Assembly (NCBI GenBank): GCA_050012675.1
Contig: JBEKGS010000001.1
Location: 733 to 64,732, forward strand
From: Acidimicrobiales bacterium
GTDB taxonomy: Bacteria; Actinomycetota; Acidimicrobiia; Acidimicrobiales; Bog-793
Reading direction: 5' to 3'
Length of the DNA stretch: 64,000 bases
Positions 12,732 through 25,677 of this stretch are shown in pieces. The notes beneath the pieces are model-generated. The model did not search any database and was not told the origin of the DNA. It was given only the letters and a program-made list of their open reading frames with translations. The translations under genes were made by a program, and so were the position numbers. Position 1 is the first letter of the stretch. Every line of letters begins with the position of its first letter.

Positions 12732-12751
12732 TTGTCGTCAGGCGACGACAA
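12732..12751. promoter_or_regulatory. perfect inverted repeat TTGTCGTC-AGGC-GACGACAA, candidate operator or leader hairpin of the ABC operon
   Basis: Seen directly in the sequence. It ends 10 nt before the GGAGGGG SD of the solute-binding-protein gene. The GT...AC-type palindrome is compatible with GntR-family operators. Confidence 0.4.
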
Positions 12752-12772: not shown

Positions 12773-14407
12773 TTGAACTTGGTCAAGAACAAGTATCGGA
12801 ATCACCGATGGGCCGCGTTGATCGGCGTCGCATGCCTTGTAGGAACCCTCACGGTCGCCCTGGCGCCCAGTGCATCCTCGGCGTCGGGCTCAGGCTCGGG
12901 TCCCCGATACGGCGGAATCTTTCAAACAGCGTTCCAGTCCAGTCCGACGACGTTTGACCCGCAGGTCTGTTACGACGCCACGTGCTGGGACAACATGGAG
13001 ATGATCTTCAACCGTCTCTACGACTACGAGACGGCGGGCACGACGCTCGAGCCCGAGGCCGCGACAGCCATGCCGGTGAGATCGGACGGCGGCAAGGTCT
13101 ACACGATCTCCATCCGCAAGGGCATGGAGTTCTCCAACGGCAAGCCCGTGACGGCAGCCGATTTTGCCTACTCGTTCTCTCGGATCTGCAACCCGGCGAC
13201 GAAGTCGCCCGTGGTCGGCTTCTGGGACGAGGTGGTGGGTTGTGCGGCCTACGCCAAGAAGCCCACGGGTTACGTCTCGGGCATCAAGCCCCTATCGCCG
13301 TACTCGCTGCAGATCACGCTGACCGAGCCCGACGCGGCGTTCGTCTATGTCCTGGCCATGCCCCACGCCTCGGTCATCCCGACCGGCACGGGTCCCCAGC
13401 AGGCTCAGCACCCGCTGGGCTCGGGACCGTACGAGCTCGTCAGCTACACCCCAGGTCAGTCGATTGTCTTGCAGAAGAACCCCCACTACTGGAACAAGAT
13501 CTACCCGTACACCGACGGCGTCTACGAGAAGCTGGGCGTGAGCCCTCAGGTGCAGCTGCTCGAGCTCGAGAAGGGTCAACTCGACCTGATGGGTGACGTT
13601 CTGCCGAACTCGGACTACTTGAGCGTCATCGAGAACCCGTCGTTGAAGAAGCAGACGGTCACGATCTCGGCGTTGGACACCTATTTTTTGACGCTGAACA
13701 CGCAGATGAAGCCGTTCAACAACCCTCTCGTCCGAGAGGCGGTTTCGTACGCCGTCAACCGGTCGTCACTGCTGAAGTTCGTCAACGGCCAAGGCACCGT
13801 AGCCACGGGCTTCATCCCCCCGGGCGTGAAGGGCTACACCACCCAGAACATGGTCAACCCCCTGAACGTGGCCAAGGCCAAGGCGCTGCTGAAGCAGGCC
13901 GGGTACCCGAAGGGCTTCTCGACGAGCATGTACAGCTGGAACACCCAGCCCTGGACGAACCTGGACACGGCCCTGCAACAGCAGCTCGCCGCGGTCGGCA
14001 TCCAGGTGGCAGTGCACGCCATTCAACAGAGCACGTTCTTTACGCTCGCGGCCACGCCGGGCAAGACCCCCATGACATTGACATTCTGGGTGGCCGACTT
14101 CCCGGACGGCAGCGACTTCTTCAACGCGCTCGTGTCGTGCGCGGCGGACATTCCCGGAGGACAGAACTACCCCTTCTACTGCAATCACGCCGTAGACAGC
14201 GAGATCGCCCAGGGACTGGCCGATCCGAGCAGCGCCACGATGTACTACGTCGCCGCGACGAAGAAGTTGCTCGCTGACAACCCGATTGTCCCTCTTTACT
14301 TCGGGACGGTGACGACGGTGTACGGCTCGAACGTCGGTGGTTTCGCCCAGAACCCGATCTGGGCCTACATGATCGACCGTTACTGGTTGAAGAACCCTTC
14401 CGCCTAA
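12773..14407 (+). CDS. ABC transporter substrate-binding protein, family 5 (peptide/nickel/opine type)
   Basis: The TTG start has a GGAGGGG SD. A signal peptide is followed by a Ser/Gly linker. The product shows SBP_bac_5-like blocks along its whole length (544 aa). Confidence 0.9.
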   Translation: MNLVKNKYRNHRWAALIGVACLVGTLTVALAPSASSASGSGSGPRYGGIFQTAFQSSPTTFDPQVCYDATCWDNMEMIFNRLYDYETAGTTLEPEAATAMPVRSDGGKVYTISIRKGMEFSNGKPVTAADFAYSFSRICNPATKSPVVGFWDEVVGCAAYAKKPTGYVSGIKPLSPYSLQITLTEPDAAFVYVLAMPHASVIPTGTGPQQAQHPLGSGPYELVSYTPGQSIVLQKNPHYWNKIYPYTDGVYEKLGVSPQVQLLELEKGQLDLMGDVLPNSDYLSVIENPSLKKQTVTISALDTYFLTLNTQMKPFNNPLVREAVSYAVNRSSLLKFVNGQGTVATGFIPPGVKGYTTQNMVNPLNVAKAKALLKQAGYPKGFSTSMYSWNTQPWTNLDTALQQQLAAVGIQVAVHAIQQSTFFTLAATPGKTPMTLTFWVADFPDGSDFFNALVSCAADIPGGQNYPFYCNHAVDSEIAQGLADPSSATMYYVAATKKLLADNPIVPLYFGTVTTVYGSNVGGFAQNPIWAYMIDRYWLKNPSA

Positions 14408-14452: not shown

Positions 14453-15496
14453 GTGGTTTCAGCGTCATCGGTTGAACCGGTGCTGCGACGCGACGCGGTG
14501 GTCGTGGTCAATCGTCTGTCGGTCGCCTTCCCGAGCAGGACCGGCAGTGGCGAAGTCGTCCGCGATCTCTCCTTCTCGGTGAAAGCGGGACAACGCGTCG
14601 GACTCGTTGGTGAGTCCGGCTGCGGCAAGTCAATGACGGCGCGGGCCATCATGCAGCTCATCCCCGTTCCCGGTCGCATCAGCGGCGGTGAGGTCTACGT
14701 CGGCGGTGACCAGAACCCGGCAAGCGCCGCCAGTGCCAAACGCTGGCGCGGCACCACGGTGGCCATGATCACCCAGGACCCGCTCTCCAGCCTCAACCCA
14801 CTTGTGCGCATCGGGGTTCAGATCACCGAGATGCTCCGTTATCACGGCCGTCTCTCACGAGCCCAAGCCCGAACGCGGGCCGTCGAGTTGTTGAACGCCG
14901 TAGGCATCCCCAATCCCAAGCGCACGATGCGCCAATTCCCCAATGTCCTCTCGGGCGGTATGCGCCAGCGCGTCGCGCTGGCCATAGCCATAAGTTGCAA
15001 CCCGAGTTTGCTGATAGCCGACGAGCCGACTACTGCGCTGGACGTCACCATCCAGGCACAGGTTCTCGACCTGCTCGAGCAGATGACGGCCGAGCACAAC
15101 AGTGCCGTCCTGCTGATCACCCATGACCTCGGAGTCGTGGCGAATTTCTGCGAGGAGATCCTCGTGATGTACGCGGGGCGGATCGTGGAGACAGGCCCGA
15201 CTGAGCATCTCCTCGAGAGCCCTCAACACCCCTACACGGTTGCACTGCTGGCGTCGGTGCCGTCGATGACCGAGGAGGTGCCCGAACGCCTCAACTCGAT
15301 TTCCGGAAGCCCGCCCGTGGGCGGACTCGACATGCGCGGTTGCGCCTTCGCGCCGCGTTGTCAACTGGCTCAGCCCAAGTGTCTCGACATCGAGCCACAG
15401 TTGCGTGAATTGGGGTATTCGGCACGTCGCGTGGCCTGTCATGCCGCGGGTGAACCCAGCTGGCCGGGACGACGCACCGCAGAGGTAGTCCCGTGA
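14453..15496 (+). CDS. ABC transporter ATP-binding protein (DppD/OppD-like)
   Basis: Walker A GESGCGKS, signature LSGGMRQR and Walker [13 protein letters not shown] are present, with an oligopeptide-type C-terminal domain. Confidence 0.9.
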
Positions 15497-16497
15497 GCAA
15501 GACGGCGACGTCGCTTCTCGAGGTGCGTGACCTGGCGGTTCACTTTCGCGTGCGAAAGGGTCTCGCGGCCTCGCGCGCTGTGAAGGCCGTCGACGGAGTC
15601 TCCTTCGACCTGATGGCCGGCCACACGCTCGGTATCGCCGGTGAGTCCGGCTCAGGCAAGAGCACTGTCGCCCGCACGCTCGTGCGCATCGTCCGTCCCA
15701 CTGGCGGAACAATCGCCTTTGACGGTGCCGAGGTGGCGAACCTGCGGGGCCAGCCACTCAAGCGGTACCGGCGTCGGATGCAGATGATCTACCAGGACCC
15801 CTATGACTCTCTTGACCCGCGTATGTCGGTGCTCGAGGTCATCGGCGAGGCCCTGACGGTGCGCGGACTACCGAAGAATCAGCACACAGGCGAGGTTGAG
15901 CGGCTCCTCGGCCGTGTCAACTTGCCCGTCTCGGTCGCCACACGCTTCCCGGGACAGCTCTCGGGCGGTCAACGCCAGCGCGTGTCGATCGCTCGGGCTC
16001 TTGCGGTGAACCCTGAGATCATCATCTGCGATGAAGCCGTAGCCGCACTCGACGTCTCGATCCGCGCGCAGATCCTGAATCTGTTGAAGGACATCCAGCG
16101 CGACACCGGTGTGGGCTATCTCTTCATCTCGCACGACCTGTCGACGCTGCGCTTCATGGCGCATCGTGTCGCCATCATGTACGTCGGGCGAGTCGTCGAG
16201 TACGGCACCAGCGAGGAGGTCTTGACCAATCCGCTGCACCCCTACACCAAGGCCCTCATCGCTGCGGTGCCGAGTGTCACCTCGCGGGGGCGACTCCGCC
16301 TCAAGTTGCGGGGAGAGCCCCCGGACCCGGGCGATCCGCCCTCAGGCTGTCCCTTCCATCCGCGTTGCCCTGAGGCGATCGACGAGTGCCGCCGTGTGCG
16401 CCCCGACCTGGTCGCCGTCCCCGGGGGCCAGTCGGTGGCATGCCATGTGGTGTTCCGTTCGCGCCCGAGCGTGCAAGCCCCAGGGTGGCCGGCGTGA
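15493..16497 (+). CDS. ABC transporter ATP-binding protein (DppF/OppF-like)
   Basis: Walker A GESGSGKS, signature LSGGQRQR and the C-terminal GCPFHPRCP motif are present. It overlaps the upstream gene by 4 nt. Confidence 0.9.
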   Translation: MSKTATSLLEVRDLAVHFRVRKGLAASRAVKAVDGVSFDLMAGHTLGIAGESGSGKSTVARTLVRIVRPTGGTIAFDGAEVANLRGQPLKRYRRRMQMIYQDPYDSLDPRMSVLEVIGEALTVRGLPKNQHTGEVERLLGRVNLPVSVATRFPGQLSGGQRQRVSIARALAVNPEIIICDEAVAALDVSIRAQILNLLKDIQRDTGVGYLFISHDLSTLRFMAHRVAIMYVGRVVEYGTSEEVLTNPLHPYTKALIAAVPSVTSRGRLRLKLRGEPPDPGDPPSGCPFHPRCPEAIDECRRVRPDLVAVPGGQSVACHVVFRSRPSVQAPGWPA

Positions 16498-17426
16498 TCA
16501 ACCTGCCCGAGAACGAGATCGTCCCTGACTTGGTCGGCATCGAGCCCGTCGTGCTCAGCCAACCCAACTTCTGGAGCCGAGCCGGCAAGAGCCTGTTGCA
16601 CGACCCCGTTGCGCTGTGCTCGGTGCTATTCATCTTGCTGCTCGTGGTCGTCGCGGTGTTCGCGCCGTGGATCGCGCCCTACAACCCGTTGCGTGAGTTC
16701 GCCAACGGCCTCTCGGAGGTGGGCGCGCCGGTGGCACCGAACAGTCACTTCCTCCTCGGCACCGACGAGGCCGGTCGCGACGTGCTTTCGCGTCTGATTT
16801 TCGGCGCGCGGGTTTCGCTATTGGTTGGCGTGGTCGCGACCGCCCTCGCCTCGACGATCGGTGTGCTGATCGGAGCCGTCGCCGGCTACGTCGGCGGGGT
16901 CACCGAGTCGGTTCTCATGCGTTTCACCGACATGGTGCTGTCGTTCCCGATTCTGCTCTTCTGTGTGGCCCTGATCGCGGTAACGGGCCCGAGCACTCGC
17001 AACGTGGTCCTCGTCATCGCCTTCGCGTACTGGACTTACCTGGCGCGTGTGGTGCGCGGCCAGGTGCTCTCGCTCAAAGAGCGCGAGTTCGTCACCGCAG
17101 CGCGCACGCTCGGCGTCGGGCACTTCAAGATCATCTTCAAACACGTCATGCCCCACCTGATGCCGACGATCATCGTCTACGGCACCCTCGGGGTTGCGAC
17201 GTCGATCCTCATTGAGGCCTCCCTCTCCTTTCTTGGCATCGGGGTGCCTCTGCCCCAGGCTTCGTGGGGCGGGATGATCTCCGAGGGGCAGCAGTACTTC
17301 CAGACTGCGCCGTGGCTTCTGATCGCGCCTGGCGTGGCGCTGATCCTGACGGTGCTCTCGATCAATCTGGCGGGCGACTGGCTGACCGATGTGCTGGACG
17401 CGACGAGGCGGGAGATCGGGCGATGA
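16494..17426 (+). CDS. ABC transporter permease (DppC/OppC-like)
   Basis: The GTG at 16494 forms a GTGA overlap with the upstream stop. The N-terminal OppC_N-like block FWSRAGKSLLHDPVAL is followed by six transmembrane segments. Confidence 0.9.
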   Translation: MINLPENEIVPDLVGIEPVVLSQPNFWSRAGKSLLHDPVALCSVLFILLLVVVAVFAPWIAPYNPLREFANGLSEVGAPVAPNSHFLLGTDEAGRDVLSRLIFGARVSLLVGVVATALASTIGVLIGAVAGYVGGVTESVLMRFTDMVLSFPILLFCVALIAVTGPSTRNVVLVIAFAYWTYLARVVRGQVLSLKEREFVTAARTLGVGHFKIIFKHVMPHLMPTIIVYGTLGVATSILIEASLSFLGIGVPLPQASWGGMISEGQQYFQTAPWLLIAPGVALILTVLSINLAGDWLTDVLDATRREIGR

Positions 17427-18361
17427 TCGGGTGGCTCGTCCGACGGTTCCTGCAGATGCTGCTGGTGGTTTTCGGCGTCGTGTCGCTTGCTTTCGTCTTC
17501 GCCTTCCTTGTGCCGGCCAATCCCGCCCGTATGGTTGCGGGTCCTCAGGCAAGCCCCGTGGCGGTCGCCTCCATTGCCCGCCAACTCGGCCTCGACCGCT
17601 CTGTATGGTCGCAGTACCTGAGTTTTCTTGCCCGTCTGGCTCACGGCAACCTCGGGGTCTCCTTCGTCCTCGAGGGTCGCACCGTGGCCAGCGAGATCTG
17701 GGGGGCGCTGCCCTACACGGCTTTTTTGGCGCTCGGCGGAGTCATCTGGGAGATCGTGCTCGGTGTCCCCACGGGCATCATCGCCGCCTACAGGCCACGC
17801 AGCCTCATCGACCGCGCGACCACCCTCGGCGCGCTCTTCGGGCTTTCCGCTCCACCGTTCTGGCTGGGACTGATGCTGATCTACTTCCTCGCCTACAAGG
17901 TCTCGCTCTTTCCGCTCAACGGCGTGGGTCACCCTCTCATCTGGTACATGGTCCTGCCGAGCTTCACCCTCGGGGTCGGCGGGGCGGCCTTCTACTCACG
18001 CATGGTGCGCACCACGATGCTCCAGGTTCTGCGCTCGCCGTTCATCGAGTTCGTCCGCCTGAAGGGCATGCCGGAACGCACCATCCTTTTCCGCCACGTG
18101 TTGCGTCACGCCTTGACCCCGGTCGTCACGATGCTCGGGATGGACCTGGGATATTTCCTGGGCGGGGTTCTCATCATCGAGTCGATCTTCGGGATTCCCG
18201 GAGTGGGCCAACTGGCCTACAACTCCATCTCCACCCTTGACATCCCGATGATCACGGGCACCGTGCTGGTGGCGGCCGTGTTCATGGTGGTCATGAGCTT
18301 CATCGTCGATGTGACCTACACCTTCATCGACCCGCGCGTGAGGTTGAGCCGTGCCAAGTGA
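17423..18361 (+). CDS. ABC transporter permease (DppB/OppB-like)
   Basis: The ATG at 17423 forms an ATGA overlap. The N-terminus MIGWLVRRFLQMLLVVFGVVSLAFVF is typical of DppB. Confidence 0.9.
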   Translation: MIGWLVRRFLQMLLVVFGVVSLAFVFAFLVPANPARMVAGPQASPVAVASIARQLGLDRSVWSQYLSFLARLAHGNLGVSFVLEGRTVASEIWGALPYTAFLALGGVIWEIVLGVPTGIIAAYRPRSLIDRATTLGALFGLSAPPFWLGLMLIYFLAYKVSLFPLNGVGHPLIWYMVLPSFTLGVGGAAFYSRMVRTTMLQVLRSPFIEFVRLKGMPERTILFRHVLRHALTPVVTMLGMDLGYFLGGVLIIESIFGIPGVGQLAYNSISTLDIPMITGTVLVAAVFMVVMSFIVDVTYTFIDPRVRLSRAK

Positions 18362-18463
18362 CACCGGCCCGTGCGGTCACCCTCGCTCTTCTGGGCGCCC
18401 CACGGCGCTGATCCCTCGACAACTGATCTGTCCACGCTGGTGGTGCAGGAAGGAGCAATGAAA

Positions 18464-19594
18464 ATGAGCAAGAAGGAAGTCCGGGTCGCAGTCATCGGAG
18501 CCGGCCGATGGGCCGAGCGCGCGCACATCCCTGGATGGCAGCGCGACGAACGTGTCGAGGTGGCCGCCGTCGTTGACGTCAACCCGGCGCTCGTCAAAGA
18601 GACGGCTGATCGTTTCGGCATCGCTCGCGCGGTGAGCGACTACCGCGACGTGCTCGACGACCCAAACATCGACGTCGTGGACGTGACCACGGGCAACGAC
18701 ACGCATTTTGAGATCTCGTGGGCTTCCCTAGAGGCCGGCAAGCACGTGCTTTGTGAAAAGCCGGTGCACCACGACGCGCGCGAGACCTCGCGCGCCGCGG
18801 CTCTGGCCGAGGCGAAGGGCCTGAAGACCAAGCTCGGCTTCACGTTCCGCTATGCGCCGGCGATCCAGTACGCCAAGGACCTGATCGACGAGGGCTTCGT
18901 CGGCGTGCCCTACATCTTCAACGGCTACGAGCAGAACAGCCAGTGGATCGACCCGTCGACGCCGCTTCGCCAGGCCGAGGACGCTCCCGGAGACGACAAC
19001 GAGATCGCAGTCTCATCCATCGAGGGCTATGGCGCGCCGACCATCGACATAATGCACTGGTGGGTCAAGAGCCGAATCACCAACGTCGTGGGCACGATGC
19101 GCAACTTCGTTCCCGAGCGTGTCCTGCGCTCGAGCGGGAAGATGGAGCGGATCAATATCGACGACGGCGACATGTGGATCTGCGAGTTCGAGGACGACGT
19201 CATCGCCTCTATGCAGTCGTCCTACGTCACGGTGGGCAACTACCCGGGCATCGAGGTGCGCCTGTACGGATCTGAGGGTGCCGTGATAGTCCGCCTGGTC
19301 GAGGAGTTCGGCATCTGCCAGACCATCAAGACGGCCACAAAGAACTCGGTGGAGTTCGTCGAGCGGGAGATCCCCGAGCGCTACTTCCCGAGCGGCGGAA
19401 CCAGCCGGGAGCAGTGGCCTTCGCTGTTCTACTCGAACCTGATAGGCAACTTCGTCGACGAGATTGTCGGACAGGCGCCCGAGGCTCAGGGAGACTTCGC
19501 CCAGGGCGCGCTGGTCCAGCGAACCATCAACGCCTTCGAGCGCTCGTTCCGACAGCGGCGCTGGGTGCATTTCAGCGAGGTCGAGGGTGCCTGA
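18464..19594 (+). CDS. Gfo/Idh/MocA family oxidoreductase
   Basis: The Rossmann N-terminus VRVAVIGAGRWAERAHIPGW and the EKP motif in VLCEKPV are present. The ATG at 18464 lies 8 nt after AAGGAG. An alternative ATG at 18458 is possible. Confidence 0.85.
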   Translation: MSKKEVRVAVIGAGRWAERAHIPGWQRDERVEVAAVVDVNPALVKETADRFGIARAVSDYRDVLDDPNIDVVDVTTGNDTHFEISWASLEAGKHVLCEKPVHHDARETSRAAALAEAKGLKTKLGFTFRYAPAIQYAKDLIDEGFVGVPYIFNGYEQNSQWIDPSTPLRQAEDAPGDDNEIAVSSIEGYGAPTIDIMHWWVKSRITNVVGTMRNFVPERVLRSSGKMERINIDDGDMWICEFEDDVIASMQSSYVTVGNYPGIEVRLYGSEGAVIVRLVEEFGICQTIKTATKNSVEFVEREIPERYFPSGGTSREQWPSLFYSNLIGNFVDEIVGQAPEAQGDFAQGALVQRTINAFERSFRQRRWVHFSEVEGA

Positions 19595-21080
19595 AACGAC
19601 TCTGCTGGCCGCCCACCAGTGGGGCGAGCTGGACCGGGCCTCGGCGATGCCGCTTTTGCGTGGCGTCGTCGCCGAGGCTGAGACCGCCGGTGCGGAGTTC
19701 TGCGACGTCCGCCTCTCTGAGACCGAGGAGCTGCGCCTTTACGCCGTCTCCGAACAGGCGCCCGACGAGCGTCTCGAGAGCCACGCGGGCATCGGAGCAC
19801 GGGTGCTGGTGGACGGCGTGTGGGGCTTCGCCTCCGAGCCGCTACGTGACGATGACGACGCCCGTCTTGTGGCGCGCGCGGCAATCGCCAACGCGCGTGC
19901 CGCAAGTGAGGTCGCCGGCGCGCGGGTGACGCTTCCCCCGCGTGAAGCTGAGCTCGGTCTCTACCAGACTGACGTCGACATCGACCCGTTCCTCGTCAGC
20001 CCAGCTGAGCGGGAGCAGCTTGTCGTTGAGACGATGCGCGCCGCGGGCGGCCAACGCGGCGTCGTGCGCGTGCAGGCGGGGGTGAACGCCAAGCGTCAGC
20101 ACCGCTTCTTCGCCAACTCCGAGGGCTCGCTCCAAGAACAGCACTTCGTGGAGTCCGGCGGCATGGTGCTGGCCGTTGCAGCCGACGGTCACCTCGCTCA
20201 GCGACGCAGCTACCCCAATTCCTTCCACGGCAACACCGCTGCCGCCGGCTGGGAGTACGTTCTCGGCCTAGATCTTGTCAACCAGGCCGAGCGCGTCGGC
20301 ATCGAAGCCGTTCAGTTGCTGAGCGCCCCCGTGGTGGCCTCGGGCTACTCCTCGCTGGTGATCGGTCCGGCCCAGATGGCGTTGCAGATCCACGAATCGA
20401 CGGGCCACGCCATTGAGCTCGACCGTATCCTCGGCGACGAGGCCAACTTCGCGGGTCGTTCCTTCATCACCCGGGACGCCGTCGGGAAGCTTCGTTACGG
20501 CTCACCAGCGGTCAACATCGTCGCCGACGCGACTGTGCGTGGGACACGGGGCAGCTTCATGTTCGACGATGAGGGTACTCGCACGGTCCCGACGACCCTG
20601 ATCGGCGAAGGGGTCGTGCGCAACTTTCTTTCGAGCCGGGACAGCGCGGCACGCCAGGGACTCACCTCCTCGGGGGCAGCGCGCTCGGACGGCTGGGCCT
20701 ACCTCCCGTTGTGCTTTGCCACCAACGTCTTTCTCCAGCCCGGCGAGGGTTCGACCGACGAGCTCCTGGAGCGAATGGGCGACGGCTACTACATCGACGA
20801 CAACCGCAGCTGGTCCATCGACTCAATGCGATGGAACTTCCAGTTCGGGACCGAGATCGCCTGGGAGGTCCGTAAGGGCAGGAGAACTCGTCTGGTGCGG
20901 GACTTCTCCTACGGCGGCTTGACGCCGGAATTCTGGGGCTCGGTCGAGGCGTCCGCCGGGCCCGAGGCCTTTCGCACCTTCGGGATGCCCTGTGGCAAGG
21001 GCGAGCCCAAGCAATGGGGCTTTCTCTCTCACGGGGCCGCTCCCACCCTGGTACGCGACGTCAAGATCGGAGTCTCATGA
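19587..21080 (+). CDS. tldD: TldD-type zinc metalloprotease subunit
   Basis: The GTG at 19587 overlaps the upstream gene by 8 nt. The HExxxH motif reads HESTGH (20391-20408). The conserved C-terminus is GMPCGKGEPKQ...APTLV. Confidence 0.85.
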   Translation: MPETTLLAAHQWGELDRASAMPLLRGVVAEAETAGAEFCDVRLSETEELRLYAVSEQAPDERLESHAGIGARVLVDGVWGFASEPLRDDDDARLVARAAIANARAASEVAGARVTLPPREAELGLYQTDVDIDPFLVSPAEREQLVVETMRAAGGQRGVVRVQAGVNAKRQHRFFANSEGSLQEQHFVESGGMVLAVAADGHLAQRRSYPNSFHGNTAAAGWEYVLGLDLVNQAERVGIEAVQLLSAPVVASGYSSLVIGPAQMALQIHESTGHAIELDRILGDEANFAGRSFITRDAVGKLRYGSPAVNIVADATVRGTRGSFMFDDEGTRTVPTTLIGEGVVRNFLSSRDSAARQGLTSSGAARSDGWAYLPLCFATNVFLQPGEGSTDELLERMGDGYYIDDNRSWSIDSMRWNFQFGTEIAWEVRKGRRTRLVRDFSYGGLTPEFWGSVEASAGPEAFRTFGMPCGKGEPKQWGFLSHGAAPTLVRDVKIGVS

Positions 21081-22459
21081 GCCTCGGGACATGGTTCGGG
21101 GCCGACCAGTTGCTCACGACGCTCGAGGCGGCGCTCGCAGGCAGCCCTGCCGACCAGGTGGAGATCTCTGCCACCAGTCGGGTGGGTCACCATACGCGCT
21201 TTGCCGCTGAGCGGATCCACCAGGCACAAACGATCATCGAGTGCCAGGTGTTGGTGCGCGCAGTGGTGGGCACCGGTAGCGCGCGCGTGGCCGTGAACTC
21301 CCTTCATCTGGTGCCGCGTGCCGTTGCCGAGGCCAGCGCCCTGGCACGTTCGCGAGACGGGCTGGAGGGCGCCGAGGTGCCCTATGACGTTGCCGCGGGC
21401 CAGATCGACTGCGACACGACGGGTCTGTGGGTCGAAGCAACGGCCGCCTGGGACGTCGGCGCGCGCTCGCGTCTCGCCGGAATCGTCATGGCCGCGGCTC
21501 AGCAGGCCGGGGGCACGGTGAACGGCACCTTGACGGCGGCTTCGAGCGAGCTCGCGGTCGTGACCAGTCGGGGCGTACGTGCCCACGGGGCGGCCACCGA
21601 GGCAGGTTTCACCATGACTATCCGCTTCGGGGAGGCCTCGTCGTACATCGGTGACCTCTCGCGCGACGCCGGCACCTTGAACGTGCAGCACCGCGCGCTC
21701 GAGGCGATCGCCGCCACGGCGCAGGTGCGCGAGGTGGTTCCCGTGCCCGACGGGGTCCACGACGTCGTCTTCGGACCGCTCGCCGCCGGGGAACTGGTCG
21801 GCTTCGTGCCTGACTTCGGCTTCACGGCCCCGGCCCTCAGAGCTGGCATCGGTCTCGTGGCCCAACACGGTGGCGAAATCGTGGCACCGGAGTTTGTCAC
21901 GATCGCCGATGACGCGCGCGCCGGGGTCGGACTGCCGTTCCCCTTCGACTTCGAGGGCAGTGCCAAGAAGAGCGTTGTGCTCATCGATCGCGGTCGTGTG
22001 GGCGCGGCGGTGAGCGATCGGGCGAGCGCTTCGATGACCGACGGGATGTCGACCGGCCACGCCTCGATCGGCCGAGAGCAATCGCCCGAGCCTGCTTGTG
22101 CCAACCTTGTCATGGCGTCGGGCACTCAGAGCGAGGACGAGCTCGTCGCCGGCATCGAGCGGGGCCTGTACGTGCAGCGTCTTTGGTACAACCGCCTTGT
22201 CGATGCTGAAGCCGGCACCGTCGTTGGCACCAGCCGCGACGCCTGCTTCCTGATCGAGAACGGCAGGCGCACCGAGGCCTTGGCCGGCGGGCGGTTCAAT
22301 GAGAGCATCATCGAGGCGTTACGCCGCACGGACGCGCTGAGCAGCCTGCGCTACAGCCAGCCGATACCGAACCTCTGGAACAGCTGCATCACCGCGCCGG
22401 CCATGCGCGTACGCGGCTTTTGCTTCGGCACGCGCACAAGGAGAGAGGAAGGCTCGTGA
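21077..22459 (+). CDS. pmbA: PmbA/TldE-type protease partner subunit (no HExxxH)
   Basis: The start forms an ATGA overlap with tldD. PmbA_TldD family blocks include GLYVQRLWYNRLVD and ITAPAMRVRGF. Confidence 0.85.
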   Translation: MSLGTWFGADQLLTTLEAALAGSPADQVEISATSRVGHHTRFAAERIHQAQTIIECQVLVRAVVGTGSARVAVNSLHLVPRAVAEASALARSRDGLEGAEVPYDVAAGQIDCDTTGLWVEATAAWDVGARSRLAGIVMAAAQQAGGTVNGTLTAASSELAVVTSRGVRAHGAATEAGFTMTIRFGEASSYIGDLSRDAGTLNVQHRALEAIAATAQVREVVPVPDGVHDVVFGPLAAGELVGFVPDFGFTAPALRAGIGLVAQHGGEIVAPEFVTIADDARAGVGLPFPFDFEGSAKKSVVLIDRGRVGAAVSDRASASMTDGMSTGHASIGREQSPEPACANLVMASGTQSEDELVAGIERGLYVQRLWYNRLVDAEAGTVVGTSRDACFLIENGRRTEALAGGRFNESIIEALRRTDALSSLRYSQPIPNLWNSCITAPAMRVRGFCFGTRTRREEGS

Positions 22460-23337
22460 ACGTCGCCAGCAACGTTGACCGCCTCTTGACCCAGGTGCTC
22501 GCCGGCGAGGTCTGGCCGCCCCTCGCGGACCGTAACGGTTTTCGGATCGACCCGGAGGGGCGAGCCTTTTTTCTGCCCGGCATGGGCGGGGTCACTCTCG
22601 ACGTGCACGTCGGCGATCCGGCGACTGGTTACGCCGGCGACCACGTCGAGCCCGGGCTCTCGGTACGTCACCGCGACCCGGCTGCCAACTACGCCCTCCA
22701 GTACCTGAGTTGTATCGGCAATCGTGTCGAGGTGACGTCGGGACCTGCCAAAGGCGCCGCCGGCTTCGTTATCGGTCAGCATGCCTACGTGCTTGTGGAC
22801 ATGGACAGTGATGACATGCGCCATGTCACCGCGGGAGACCAGGTCAGCGTCTTTGCCGTGGGACAAGGTCTTGTTCTTCACGACCACCCCGAGGTGGTGG
22901 TGAAGAACTGTTCGCCGGCGCTGTTGGCGGCACTCCAGGCAGGCACGACTTCGACGGGCCAACTGGAGGTTCATGTCAGCGCCGTTGTCCCGCCAGAGGC
23001 GATCGGCGCCGGGGCCGGAATGGCTTCGGAGTACGCCAACACCGACCTGATGGGCGCCTATGCAGGAATGGGCGAGGATCTCTCGCTCGGACTGGAGGTC
23101 CTGCGCGTCGGTGACGTGGTGGCGCTCACGGACCAAGACCACCGGTTCGGTAGGGGCTACCGTGAGAACTGGACGACCGTCGGCGTCATCTCGACTGCGA
23201 GCTGCCTGCTCTACGGCCACGGGCCCGGTCCCTCTTCGATCATGAGCGGTCCGGCCGGTGCCTTCAAGGTCGTCATTGATGATTCGGCGAATCTGAGCTC
23301 TTTCAACCTCGGACAACCAAGGGGCACCCGTGAGTGA
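22456..23337 (+). CDS. uncharacterised protein, paralog A (recalled as DUF4438-like; unverified)
   Basis: The start forms a GTGA overlap with pmbA. Motifs shared with the next gene are GDHxxPG, C(I/L)GNRVxV, GDQV, GQG, GD(V/L)VA(L/I)xDxD, GYRxNWxxVGV and GHGPG. Confidence 0.7.
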   Translation: MNVASNVDRLLTQVLAGEVWPPLADRNGFRIDPEGRAFFLPGMGGVTLDVHVGDPATGYAGDHVEPGLSVRHRDPAANYALQYLSCIGNRVEVTSGPAKGAAGFVIGQHAYVLVDMDSDDMRHVTAGDQVSVFAVGQGLVLHDHPEVVVKNCSPALLAALQAGTTSTGQLEVHVSAVVPPEAIGAGAGMASEYANTDLMGAYAGMGEDLSLGLEVLRVGDVVALTDQDHRFGRGYRENWTTVGVISTASCLLYGHGPGPSSIMSGPAGAFKVVIDDSANLSSFNLGQPRGTRE

Positions 23338-24202
23338 GGTCAAGGTGGTCAGAGTCAACCTGCTGGGCCACGTGGACCAGGGCGAGGTCGGCACCGAGCC
23401 CTACCGTGTGGATCGCGACGGGCGGTCCTACGTGGCCGTCGGCGACGGCGGCACGGTGCTCGGACTGCGACTCGGGGAGAGCGTTTTTCGCCATGTCGGC
23501 GACCACGCCGCGCCCGGCGTCTGTCTCGTGCACCCGAGCGACGACGCCCGCCATGCCCTTGTGGGCCTGGCCTGTCTCGGCAATCGGGTCACCGTCCGTA
23601 CCGGCCACGCGTTCGGCCATGTCGGAAGCGTGCTCGGCAAGCGCGGCGGCGGCCAGCGAGTGATCGCAGTTTTCCCTCAGGATGTTCTCGCCCGCCTACG
23701 GCCGGGCGACCAGGTTGCCCTCTTGAGCTGTGGCCAGGGGGCCGCGGCGCCTGTGCCCGGGCTCACGCAGATGAATGTCGCCCCCGCGGCGCTCTCGCTG
23801 CTCGGGCTCACAGTGCAGGGTGACCGCCTAAAGGTGGGCGTGCGCGCCATGTTGCCGAGCCGCTTTGTGGGCAATGGGATCGGTCGGCCGATGGCGATGT
23901 GGGACGTCGACTTGCAGGTCGACTCTGACACATCAGCGACACGTTCCTTGTGCCTCGGCGATCTCGTGGCCATCAGTGACCTTGACGCTCGCACCAACGC
24001 CGGGTACCGGCGTAACTGGATGAGCGTCGGTGTCGTCGTGCACGGAGCGAGCCCCCAACCGGGACACGGACCGGGCGTTATGGTGGTCCTGAGCGGCCCG
24101 GCGGAGCTCTTCTCGGTGGGCGTCGAAGGTGAGGACCACCAGCCTCTGTCCGAGGAGAGGCTCATTTCTGCCGCGAAAGGCGAGGGACGCGATGATGCCT
24201 GA
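23330..24202 (+). CDS. uncharacterised protein, paralog B of the preceding gene
   Basis: The GTG start overlaps the upstream gene by 8 nt. It has the same motif set as 22456..23337 and a similar length. Confidence 0.7.
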   Translation: MSEVKVVRVNLLGHVDQGEVGTEPYRVDRDGRSYVAVGDGGTVLGLRLGESVFRHVGDHAAPGVCLVHPSDDARHALVGLACLGNRVTVRTGHAFGHVGSVLGKRGGGQRVIAVFPQDVLARLRPGDQVALLSCGQGAAAPVPGLTQMNVAPAALSLLGLTVQGDRLKVGVRAMLPSRFVGNGIGRPMAMWDVDLQVDSDTSATRSLCLGDLVAISDLDARTNAGYRRNWMSVGVVVHGASPQPGHGPGVMVVLSGPAELFSVGVEGEDHQPLSEERLISAAKGEGRDDA

Positions 24203-24860
24203 GATGAGAAGCTCCCCTGGAAGCCTGATCAACCGCGCTTCCCTGCCCGAGGTGGTCCACGACGAACTGCGCCGGCGCATCCTCAACGATGAGCTCGCGG
24301 CCGGCGAACGCTTGTTGGAGTCCAAGATTGCCGAGGAGTTCGGCGTGAGCCGCACCACGTTGCGCTCGGCCCTGCACGACCTGGCGAACGAGAACCTGGT
24401 GAAGATCAGCAAGCGTCGTGGGTGCTTCGTCGCGCGCATGGATGCTGCGGAGATCCAAGACACGTGCTTCGCTCGGTTCCTCCTCGAGGCCGGGGCCGCC
24501 TGCGACAAGCTGAACTGGATCACCCCCGAGGCGCTCGATGAGCTCGAGGCCCACGTGCAGGAGATGAAACAGGCCGCGATAGTGGGCGATATGGCGGCGA
24601 TCGTCGATGCGGACACCGATTTCCACGGGCGCATCGTCTCGGCCGGAGAACGCCTACGCGTGCGCGATCTCTGGCACATGCTCGACGGGCAGATGGGCGC
24701 GTTGATGCGCTCGTCGTTCGAGCAGCAGGGCATCAACATGGACGATCTCGTCAAACGCCACGTCGATGTGATCGAGGCGTTGCGCTCGCGCAACGCGAAG
24801 GTGATCAGAGAGGCGATAAAGGACCACTACCTCGAGCGCCACATGCTCGACGGGGACTAG
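24192..24860 (+). CDS. GntR family transcriptional regulator (FadR/FCD subfamily)
   Basis: The HTH block LLESKIAEEFGVSRTTLRSALHDLANENLV is followed by an FCD-like helical domain containing DTDFHGRIV. The ATG at 24192 overlaps the upstream gene. Alternative starts are 24195 and 24204. Confidence 0.85.
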   Translation: MMPEMRSSPGSLINRASLPEVVHDELRRRILNDELAAGERLLESKIAEEFGVSRTTLRSALHDLANENLVKISKRRGCFVARMDAAEIQDTCFARFLLEAGAACDKLNWITPEALDELEAHVQEMKQAAIVGDMAAIVDADTDFHGRIVSAGERLRVRDLWHMLDGQMGALMRSSFEQQGINMDDLVKRHVDVIEALRSRNAKVIREAIKDHYLERHMLDGD

Positions 24861-24867
24861 CGCATAG

Positions 24868-25677
24868 ATGCGCCGGGCCCTTTTCTTGCCTGCCTTCGAC
24901 GGGCTGGCTGACCCCGATCGCCTCGTCCATCTGGCCGTGCAAGCCGAGTTCGCGGGTTGGGACGGTTTTTTCCTGTGGGATCACCTCCTGTACGCCGAGC
25001 CGGTGCGCGACATCCTCGACCCATACGTGTGCCTGGCCGCCATTGCCCAGGCAACCTCGAGAATCCAGCTCGGACCGCTCGTGACGCCCTTGGTACGCCG
25101 GCGCCCGGCGGTGGTCGCCCGCCAGGCCGTCACCCTCGACCTGCTCTCGCACGGGCGCCTAGTGCTCGGGTTTGGCATCGGTGACGACGGCGGTCCCCCA
25201 GGCGAACTCTCCGCTTTCGGTGAGATTCTCGATGCCGCCGCCCGGGGACGTGCGCTGAGCGAGGGTCTCGCAATCCTCACTGGACTGTTTTCGGGCGAGA
25301 AGGTGCACCATGAGGGCGAGTTCTTCCGTGCCGCGGATATCAGCTTCTCGCCTACGCCTTGGGGGCCAGGTGGTATCCCCATCTGGCTAGCAGCGCGCTG
25401 GCCCAACCGGGCGCCGATCCGCCGGGCCGCCAGGTTCCAGGGGGTCGTCGTCATCCAGATGACCCGGCCCGCCGACGTGGCGAAACTGCGTGAACAGCTC
25501 CGCGAGGCGGGTGCCGACCTTGAGCACTTCGAGATCGTGGTGGTGGCCAGCGGCGGCGAGGACGCCAGCGCCTGGGCCGAGGCAGGCGTGACTTGGCTGC
25601 TGACCCAGCTGGGGCCCTATCGGTTGAACTTTGACGAAGCCCTCGAGGTGGTGGCGGCGGGGCCGAGCGCGACCTGA
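24868..25677 (+). CDS. LLM-class (luciferase-like) flavin/F420-dependent oxidoreductase
   Basis: Blocks GWDGFFLWDHL, RIQLGPLVTP and GRLVLGFGIG are typical of the luciferase-like monooxygenase fold. Confidence 0.8.
   Translation: MRRALFLPAFDGLADPDRLVHLAVQAEFAGWDGFFLWDHLLYAEPVRDILDPYVCLAAIAQATSRIQLGPLVTPLVRRRPAVVARQAVTLDLLSHGRLVLGFGIGDDGGPPGELSAFGEILDAAARGRALSEGLAILTGLFSGEKVHHEGEFFRAADISFSPTPWGPGGIPIWLAARWPNRAPIRRAARFQGVVVIQMTRPADVAKLREQLREAGADLEHFEIVVVASGGEDASAWAEAGVTWLLTQLGPYRLNFDEALEVVAAGPSAT

Follow-up and report, generated by a model that had tools for sequence, protein, structure and literature searches.

What two adjacent, strongly diverged paralogs contribute to a transporter operon is the question raised by a locus of an Acidimicrobiales bacterium (Actinomycetota; Acidimicrobiia; lineage Bog-793). 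The window, i.e., the whole stretch of DNA that was analyzed, comprises 64,000 nucleotides (nt) (GenBank assembly GCA_050012675.1, contig JBEKGS010000001.1, positions 733 to 64,732). The two genes, referred to here as A and B, are as follows.

22456..23337, forward strand: A, putative alpha subunit of the DUF4438 family, 293 amino acids (aa) (PF14505 and PF20999, TM1086 match, AlphaFold2 model)
23330..24202, forward strand: B, putative beta subunit of the DUF4438 family, 290 aa, with an altered site (PF14505 and PF20999, similarity to A)

We lean, with somewhat better than even chances, toward the reading that A and B form a two-subunit, hetero-oligomeric DUF4438 enzyme in which a single active site, probably metal dependent, would hydrolyze or otherwise cleave (as a lyase) an imported amino-acid derivative.

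A first-pass annotation, made from the sequence alone, had described two adjacent open reading frames (ORFs) of about 290 aa that overlap by 8 nt and directly follow a TldD/PmbA pair. The coordinates bear this out. A has a GTG start that overlaps the stop codon of the PmbA-like gene as GTGA and is preceded by a strong AAGGAG-type ribosome-binding site (AAGGAGAGAGGAAGG), B starts with GTG in the 8-nt overlap with the stop of A, and the two adjoining upstream genes encode a TldD-like protein, in which HESTGH is present, and a PmbA-like protein, which lacks this motif. All seven motifs that had been listed (GDHxxPG, C[IL]GNRVxV, GDQV, GQG, GD[VL]VA[LI]xDxD, GYRxNWxxVGV, and GHGPG) are present in both proteins, in the order stated. 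The proteins are 35% identical over 251 residues (BLASTP, E = 8e-39), far beyond chance. Direct reading of the N-termini of A and B found no signal peptide or membrane segment, as had been annotated; the accompanying remark that no cofactor motif is visible needs qualifying, however, given that a conserved His/Glu/His/Asp/His set could bind metal.

The family named in the same annotation, DUF4438, proved correct. The N-terminal (PF14505) and C-terminal (PF20999) domains of DUF4438 were detected far above their curated cutoffs (24.9 and 27 bits, respectively) in both A (156 and 105.9 bits) and B (96.5 and 80.4 bits). The sole solved relative is Thermotoga maritima TM1086 (PDB 3DCL, 5 chains; 3N99, 30 chains), which has no assigned function. 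Residues 4 to 282 of A are collinear with residues 4 to 280 of 3DCL (E = 1.2e-51), and the A4 profile matched TM1086 with an E value of 1.4e-105. An AlphaFold2 model of A, built from a 90-sequence alignment (predicted local distance difference test [pLDDT] score, 93.3; predicted template modeling [pTM] score, 0.92), matched 3DCL and 3N99 in a Foldseek search (E = 6e-32; TM-score, 0.89 to 0.92). NCBIfam and PADLOC gave no match for A or B, and Pfam at E ≤ 10 added only a nonsignificant KOW5 match for the pair. An internal duplication relating the N and C domains was rejected, with hhalign matching 13 columns of an "L..GD.V.V" strand at a probability of 8%. The family is small: when 1.84 billion proteins are clustered at 50% identity, it accounts for 599 clusters. 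DUF4438 is named in none of the papers of the searchable literature, where nothing on function was found under TM1086 or PF14505 either; the single PF14505 match was an accession mix-up for another family, and the only TM1086 mention about the protein is a crystallization note, which reports more than 1 MDa per asymmetric unit.

Judged by their residues, A belongs to the intact-site (alpha or single-copy) type and B to an altered beta type. A retains D62, H63, E65, C86, N89, H109, D128, D197, D220, H255, and N279, which are invariant in 45 alpha and 11 single-copy sequences, positions 62 to 67 being forced by the pattern with which the loci were sampled (see below). The signature was rechecked in an unbiased representative set, in which D-H-E...C-N...H...D...D...H...N was dominant and R233 was more variable. 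TM1086 is of the intact type; it aligns with A over the full length of both Pfam domains and shares H63, E65, H109, D197, H255, C86, and N89. It differs in its single-copy signature, with a longer GKHGG..H loop where alpha proteins have a 4-residue deletion, and its structures contain no altered partner, whereas the window has a diverged alpha/beta pair in a transporter operon. At the five putative site positions (63, 65, 109, 197, and 255), B has H, A, R, D, and H, i.e., it carries E65A and H109R and keeps the equivalents of H63, D197, and H255; it has also undergone H229A and R233A and lost N279. The same holds for the actinobacterial beta proteins as a group, B included: H63, D197, and H255 are kept, E65 is replaced by A or S, H109 by R (12/12), H229 by A (12/12), and R233 by A, I, or L, and N232 is conserved (12/12). 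Beta proteins outside Actinomycetota have C or L at position 63, H or Q at 65, S at 109 (22/22), H or N at 197, H at 233 (22/22), and Y at 255 (21/22), in place of H63, E65, H109, D197, R233, and H255, respectively. The N domain contributes residues 63, 65, and 109 and the C domain residues 197 and 255, so that the site could plausibly lie between domains or between subunits.

The genome from which the window derives has only these two DUF4438 copies. Among 60 relatives, three other genomes of the same genus carry the family, each with two tandem copies, and it was absent from all 400 further genomes that were sampled across the phylum; the operon is thus a rare, patchy accessory element in Actinomycetota. 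A scan of 185,579 species genomes yielded at least 569 confirmed relatives, of which the best 80 loci (denoted L with a number) were kept. A tandem pair in the same gene order was present in 63 of the 81 loci (window included), a frequency biased by the search pattern. These pairs come from Actinomycetota, Chloroflexota (one record is labeled Thermomicrobiota), Deinococcota, Gemmatimonadota, Acidobacteriota, and Alphaproteobacteria. The stop and start codons of the two genes overlap in 46 of the 63 pairs (43 of them by 4 nt), and eight further pairs have gaps of ≤30 nt. The nonpaired loci were 13 single-copy genes, which form a separate clade (Clostridia, Bathyarchaeia, Thorarchaeota, and a few other bacteria), and five lone alpha-type genes (L072, at a contig end; L087, with a partial second copy; L023, with a frameshifted second copy; and L041 and L089). 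Split frames were seen in two long-read metagenome-assembled genomes, namely, in the beta gene of L023 (10888-11744) and in the TldD genes of L021 (6951-8574) and L023; pseudogenization and assembly indel errors are both possible causes.

In a tree of 144 sequences, all first copies formed one clade together with the five alpha-type genes lacking an intact partner, the second copies required one change only, and the 13 single-copy genes formed a third clade. With the site-heterogeneous model LG+C20, support for the alpha clade was 97/94.7, and neither beta monophyly (approximately unbiased [AU] test, P = 0.40) nor an independent actinobacterial duplication (5.8 log-likelihood units worse; AU P = 0.29) was rejected. 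Under LG+G4, the tree constrained to an independent actinobacterial duplication was marginally better, probably as a long-branch effect. All alpha proteins, actinobacterial or not, have a 4-residue deletion after H109-A110, as well as M43 and Y83; the longer loop is retained in beta and single-copy proteins. A single ancient duplication is favored by the sequences, if not proven, because of the support for the alpha clade and the common deletion. In comparisons with three relatives, the ratio of nonsynonymous to synonymous substitution rates (dN/dS) was about 0.11 for A and 0.13 to 0.18 for B, indicating purifying selection on both genes. With the same order in six phyla, monophyletic first copies, and selection acting on both members, the earlier suggestion of an old duplication maintained as a pair is well founded.

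A second paired architecture was found within single polypeptides. P0126 (636 aa), one of the family representatives, contains two complete DUF4438 modules; used as a query, it matched at least 537 clusters at E ≤ 1e-10, and the top 120 fusion matches were all 591 to 643 aa long with two full modules each. Such fusions (e.g., P0328, P0126, and the loci L097:10001-11863, L098:10001-11884, and L013:865-2775) occur in Aminicenantes, KSB1, Desulfobacteria, Acidobacteria, and other taxa. Their N and C modules are sisters (99 support), and their duplication was therefore separate from the alpha/beta one. The C module keeps H63, E65, C86, H109, D197, and H255 in 120/120 fusions. The N module is altered in 120/120, with R63, T65, S86, F109, H197, and L255 in nearly all. 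On this sequence evidence, there have been at least two joint losses of the same positions, each confined to one partner. The fused proteins (~620 aa) resemble the window pair in having one intact and one altered module, which fits one working site per pair; they differ in their separate duplication, in their altered-then-intact order, and in being a single, apparently exported chain (a signal-peptide-like N-terminus was present in 109/120). They also differ in genomic setting, with the two fusion loci examined being stand-alone genes that have no ATP-binding cassette (ABC) transporter, GntR, or dehydrogenase neighbors. MacB/FtsX permease and PadR genes lie near both of these loci, which may be coincidence. 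An AlphaFold2 model of a 620-residue fusion, built from a natural alignment of 53 fusions (single-module sequences all align to the C half of the fusion), had a pLDDT score of 85.3 and a pTM score of 0.86; the latter suggests that the two modules pack in a defined, confidently placed way.

A heteromer of A and B is fairly well, if indirectly, supported, because stop and start codons overlap in 46 of the 63 pairs, a fused family arose independently, and the two-module model of that fusion is confident; the fixed gene order across pairs adds to this support. We propose that alpha and beta would be made in matched amounts through translational coupling. Alpha would hold the ancestral site of homomeric TM1086-type proteins (H63, E65, H109, D197, and H255, with C86 and N89 in supporting positions). 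Beta, with its fold kept and its site partly changed, would most likely be a noncatalytic or specificity-giving partner, so that there would be one working site per alpha-beta unit. The complex would probably depend on a metal, work without a nucleotide cofactor, and act as a hydrolase or lyase. We infer this type of reaction from the kinds of residues that are conserved, the exported relatives, and the hydrolase-rich neighborhoods described below; an exported fused form, in particular, favors chemistry without NAD or ATP. The reaction may be a key step in degrading a compound that derives from an amino acid and has a free alpha-amino group (e.g., an amide, small peptide, or conjugate), for which the family-5 ABC transporter of the operon would be the importer and the GntR regulator the control. 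In the lineage of the window, a Gfo/Idh/MocA dehydrogenase and the TldD/PmbA protease would supply adjoining steps. Established here are the family and fold, the conservation of the pair, the asymmetry of its residues, the selection on both genes, and the existence of an independent fused version; a physical heteromer, a bound metal, the type of reaction, and the substrate are proposals.

The features of the operon around A and B are as follows.

12732..12751, no strand assigned: perfect inverted repeat (8+8), TTGTCGTC-N4-GACGACAA, immediately ahead of the ribosome-binding site that serves the first gene of the operon
12773..14407, forward strand: family-5 ABC substrate-binding protein (8UPI match, E = 2e-102)
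14453..18361, forward strand: OppD-like and OppF-like ATPases and two Opp/Dpp/Nik-type permeases (NCBIfam matches), in ORFs at 14453-15496, 15493-16497, about 16386-17426, and about 17264-18361
18371..19594, forward strand: Gfo/Idh/MocA NAD(P) oxidoreductase (PF01408, PF22725)
19464..21080, forward strand: TldD-like metalloprotease with HESTGH (PF19289, PF01523, PF19290)
21014..22459, forward strand: PmbA/TldE-like protein without HExxxH (PF19289, 116.7 bits)
24192..24860, forward strand: GntR/FCD-family regulator with an ATG start, overlapping the end of B by 11 nt (PF00392, PF07729)
24868..25677, forward strand: luciferase-like monooxygenase (PF00296)

Two of these ORFs appear to be listed too long. 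The TldD-like ORF is overextended, overlapping the preceding gene by 131 nt, and likely starts near 19644 (MPLLRG); the NCBIfam TldD alignment begins at residue 68 of the listed ORF. The listed PmbA-like ORF overlaps its predecessor by 67 nt and likely starts at the ATG at 21077, in an ATGA overlap with the TldD stop. The GntR gene most likely starts at the ATG at 24192. The luciferase-like monooxygenase was also found by tblastn after the operon in L017, L018, L020, L022, L025, L026, and L031 and may be part of the same pathway. The inverted repeat is a candidate operator for the GntR regulator; a relaxed form of the palindrome had two matches in the window versus 0.17 expected. Conservation of the repeat at the corresponding position was seen in the nearest relative alone (L017, 293-310). 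The nearest solved relatives of the oxidoreductase are 4H3V, 6A3F ("putative dehydrogenase"), scyllo-inositol dehydrogenase, and DgpA, which we summarize as sugar/cyclitol dehydrogenases; its best NCBIfam match, far below the cutoff, was levoglucosan dehydrogenase.

The closest solved relative of the binding protein, 8UPI, is MeAmi_SBP, an L-amino-acid-amide binder in which Trp410 and Asp413 hold the free amino group of the ligand (bioRxiv 10.1101/2024.02.22.581678). In the printed alignment, the window protein keeps the equivalents of Tyr32, Trp410, and Asp413. It has Ala in place of Trp34 and lacks the pocket-narrowing insertion around Met408, and its pocket is therefore probably larger. From these residues, the ligand may be a free alpha-amino compound somewhat larger than a simple amino-acid amide. 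The MeAmi_SBP systems differ from the window in that their operons carry an FmdA_AmdA amidase, whereas the window operon has none and instead has the Gfo/Idh/MocA, TldD/PmbA, and DUF4438 genes.

To survey the neighbors of the sampled loci, we clustered their ORFs de novo and then ran Pfam scans. The most frequent were class I/II aminotransferases (54 loci) and GntR regulators (47/80 loci, beside the pair), followed by Glyoxalase_4 (38 loci), Ldh_2 dehydrogenases (36, usually directly after beta), family-5 binding proteins (35), Opp-type permease and ATPase clusters (31 to 34), amidohydrolases (27 and 14), NAD epimerases (25), Gfo/Idh/MocA (24 to 25), GHL10 (21), peptidase M32 (20), peptidase M24 (19), and AstE/AspA deacylases (19). 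Rarer recurring neighbors were M20 and M14 peptidases, short-chain and 2-hydroxyacid dehydrogenases, and polysaccharide deacetylase. Wherever the sequence of an actinobacterial locus extends far enough upstream, a Gfo/Idh/MocA gene adjoins the pair, and in several actinobacterial loci an aminotransferase follows the regulator or the monooxygenase. The stable company of the pair consists of the importer, the GntR regulator, the dehydrogenase(s), and the aminotransferase, and the peptidases vary by lineage. Taken as favoring an enzyme were the importers, the peptidases (M14, M20, M24, M32, M55, TldD/PmbA, and AstE/AspA), the amidohydrolases, the aminotransferases, and the dehydrogenases. The neighbors of single-copy loci (5'-nucleotidase, adenosine deaminase, DAG kinase, S33 hydrolase, CBS, DAP epimerase, and QueT) were heterogeneous and uninformative.

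Two further observations concern these neighborhoods. Outside Actinomycetota (L033, L046, L053, L091, and similar loci), the pair lies inside a conserved island of about 20 genes (~20 kb) that includes M32, aminotransferase, Glyoxalase_4, AstE/AspA, polysaccharide deacetylase, GntR, epimerase, Gfo, ABC importer, Ldh_2, M24, amidohydrolase, and GHL10 genes; no known pathway was recognized in the islands of such loci. A distant family member, P0163 (L015:1332-2180), on a short metagenome contig, is directly followed by a gene for a peptidase M55 (a DppA-type D-aminopeptidase).

An alternative that we consider unlikely, yet deserving of attention, is that the pair has no enzymatic role and builds a structural, cage-like, or ligand-binding assembly (i.e., a scaffold, or a means of substrate sequestration) in which the conserved polar residues serve assembly or binding. 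The TM1086 crystals, with 5 and 30 chains per entry and more than 1 MDa per asymmetric unit, would suit such an assembly, as would the all-beta fold of A with its many invariant glycines, its weak local resemblance to KOW/SH3-like domains, and the lack of a cofactor motif or known enzyme relative. It is less easily squared with the joint loss of the same five His/Glu/Asp positions in two or three lineages while the partner keeps them, which is usual for catalytic residues, or with the location of the genes midway in enzyme operons. Moreover, L020 and L029 have only a dehydrogenase between the importer and the pair, with a regulator plus an aminotransferase or monooxygenase after it, and few other candidates for the cleavage step are left there.

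Several points count against the two-subunit enzyme that we favor. Beyond TM1086, no match to a known hydrolase or lyase family was significant, by homology or fold, in Pfam, NCBIfam, PADLOC, or the PDB. Again apart from TM1086, the fold search of the PDB returned nothing better than E = 0.07, and there is therefore no other fold relative, and no enzyme relative, among solved structures; PanD, KOW ribosomal proteins, and phage tail proteins were rejected as fold relatives of A, all with E > 0.07. A profile search of PDB sequences added only a nonsignificant KOW-like stretch, and the searchable literature holds no demonstration of a complex, metal, or activity for any DUF4438 member. With three of the five residues still in place, B may have retained activity. 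The family-5 binding proteins are only 21 to 27% identical between phyla, so that the pair may act on a common intermediate rather than on the imported compound. The packing suggested by the pTM score of the fusion is an indirect argument and concerns a protein other than A and B. Finally, the frequency of pairs among the sampled loci is biased, in that the search pattern, [GA]DHVEPG[VLA][SI], selects intact alpha-type or single-copy genes and the best matches to A were kept.

Slightly less probable than a nonenzymatic assembly is that A and B are two separate homomeric enzymes for different substrates, coexpressed and not physically joined. B retains H63, D197, and H255 and is under purifying selection, and the beta proteins of other phyla have a conserved set of their own (C63, H65, S109, H197, H233, and Y255) that looks metal-capable, as two independent enzymes would lead one to expect. 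The genomic record speaks for joined subunits instead: the gene order is fixed, with the stop/start overlap in 46/63 pairs, and of the five alpha genes without an intact partner, L072 lies at a contig end, L087 has a partial copy, and L023 has a frameshifted copy. The independent fusion of intact and altered modules, with its confident packed model, likewise argues for a joined pair.

We regard it as very doubtful that the pair serves the TldD/PmbA protease, encoded just upstream, as an accessory or regulator. In the window, the four genes are adjacent and translationally coupled, and TldD/PmbA lies within 10 kb of the pair in 13 of 15 actinobacterial-type loci, as well as in L009 and L010, where the order differs (pair, 2-hydroxyacid dehydrogenase, GntR, TldD, PmbA). 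The first-pass annotation had proposed co-occurrence statistics with both TldD/PmbA and family-5 ABC genes. In the sample, linkage to TldD/PmbA does not extend beyond the loci just named: TldD/PmbA is absent from L020 and L029, where the Gfo gene directly precedes the pair, it was found within 10 kb of 0/47 sampled pairs outside that actinobacterial lineage, and it occurs at none of the single-copy or fused loci examined. Other peptidase families take its neighborhood in other phyla. TldD/PmbA is ruled out as an obligate partner by its absence from L020, L029, and 47/47 outside pairs. The link to family-5 ABC genes is general, despite the divergence of the binding proteins. The parallel that had been drawn between the two pairs survives in part. 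One copy is intact and one altered in the DUF4438 pair, just as Escherichia coli TldD/TldE (PmbA) are adjacent paralogs of which one keeps the metal-binding motif, and the TldD-like/PmbA-like pair of the window itself shows this architecture; the specific functional tie is not general. The likeness is an analogy of architecture only, with an unrelated fold and family and no detected homology to DUF4438.

That B is a decaying duplicate without a role is hardly credible, for although its nonsynonymous rate is about 1.3 to 1.7 times that of A and several family-invariant residues are missing, its dN/dS ratio is 0.13 to 0.18 with the frame intact, lineage-specific residues are conserved (e.g., R109 in 12/12 and N232 in 12/12), and the pair is kept across six phyla.

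A broader reading, which we put forward tentatively, is that DUF4438 is an unrecognized all-beta enzyme family with a His/Glu/His/Asp/His (metal) site, in which an asymmetric, one-site pair has evolved at least twice (as the operonic alpha/beta pair and as the secreted fusion), and that alpha/beta may carry out the committed bond cleavage in an undescribed pathway by which soil bacteria degrade amino-acid amides or conjugates that they import. Although a crystal structure from DUF4438 dates back to 2008, no function has been assigned to the family. It has three architectures, namely, the homomer, the operonic alpha/beta pair, and the secreted fusion, and the five residues that one partner retains while the other has lost them point to a likely active site. 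For genome annotation, the distribution of the pair calls for caution against reading it as a TldD/PmbA accessory. In several phyla of soil and water, the pair is central to a conserved island of catabolic genes, and it has hundreds of relatives. As a probable two-part enzyme within a nutrient-uptake operon, it is a promising place to look for a novel enzyme activity, and knowledge of its reaction would probably uncover a new route for the use of nutrients derived from amino acids.

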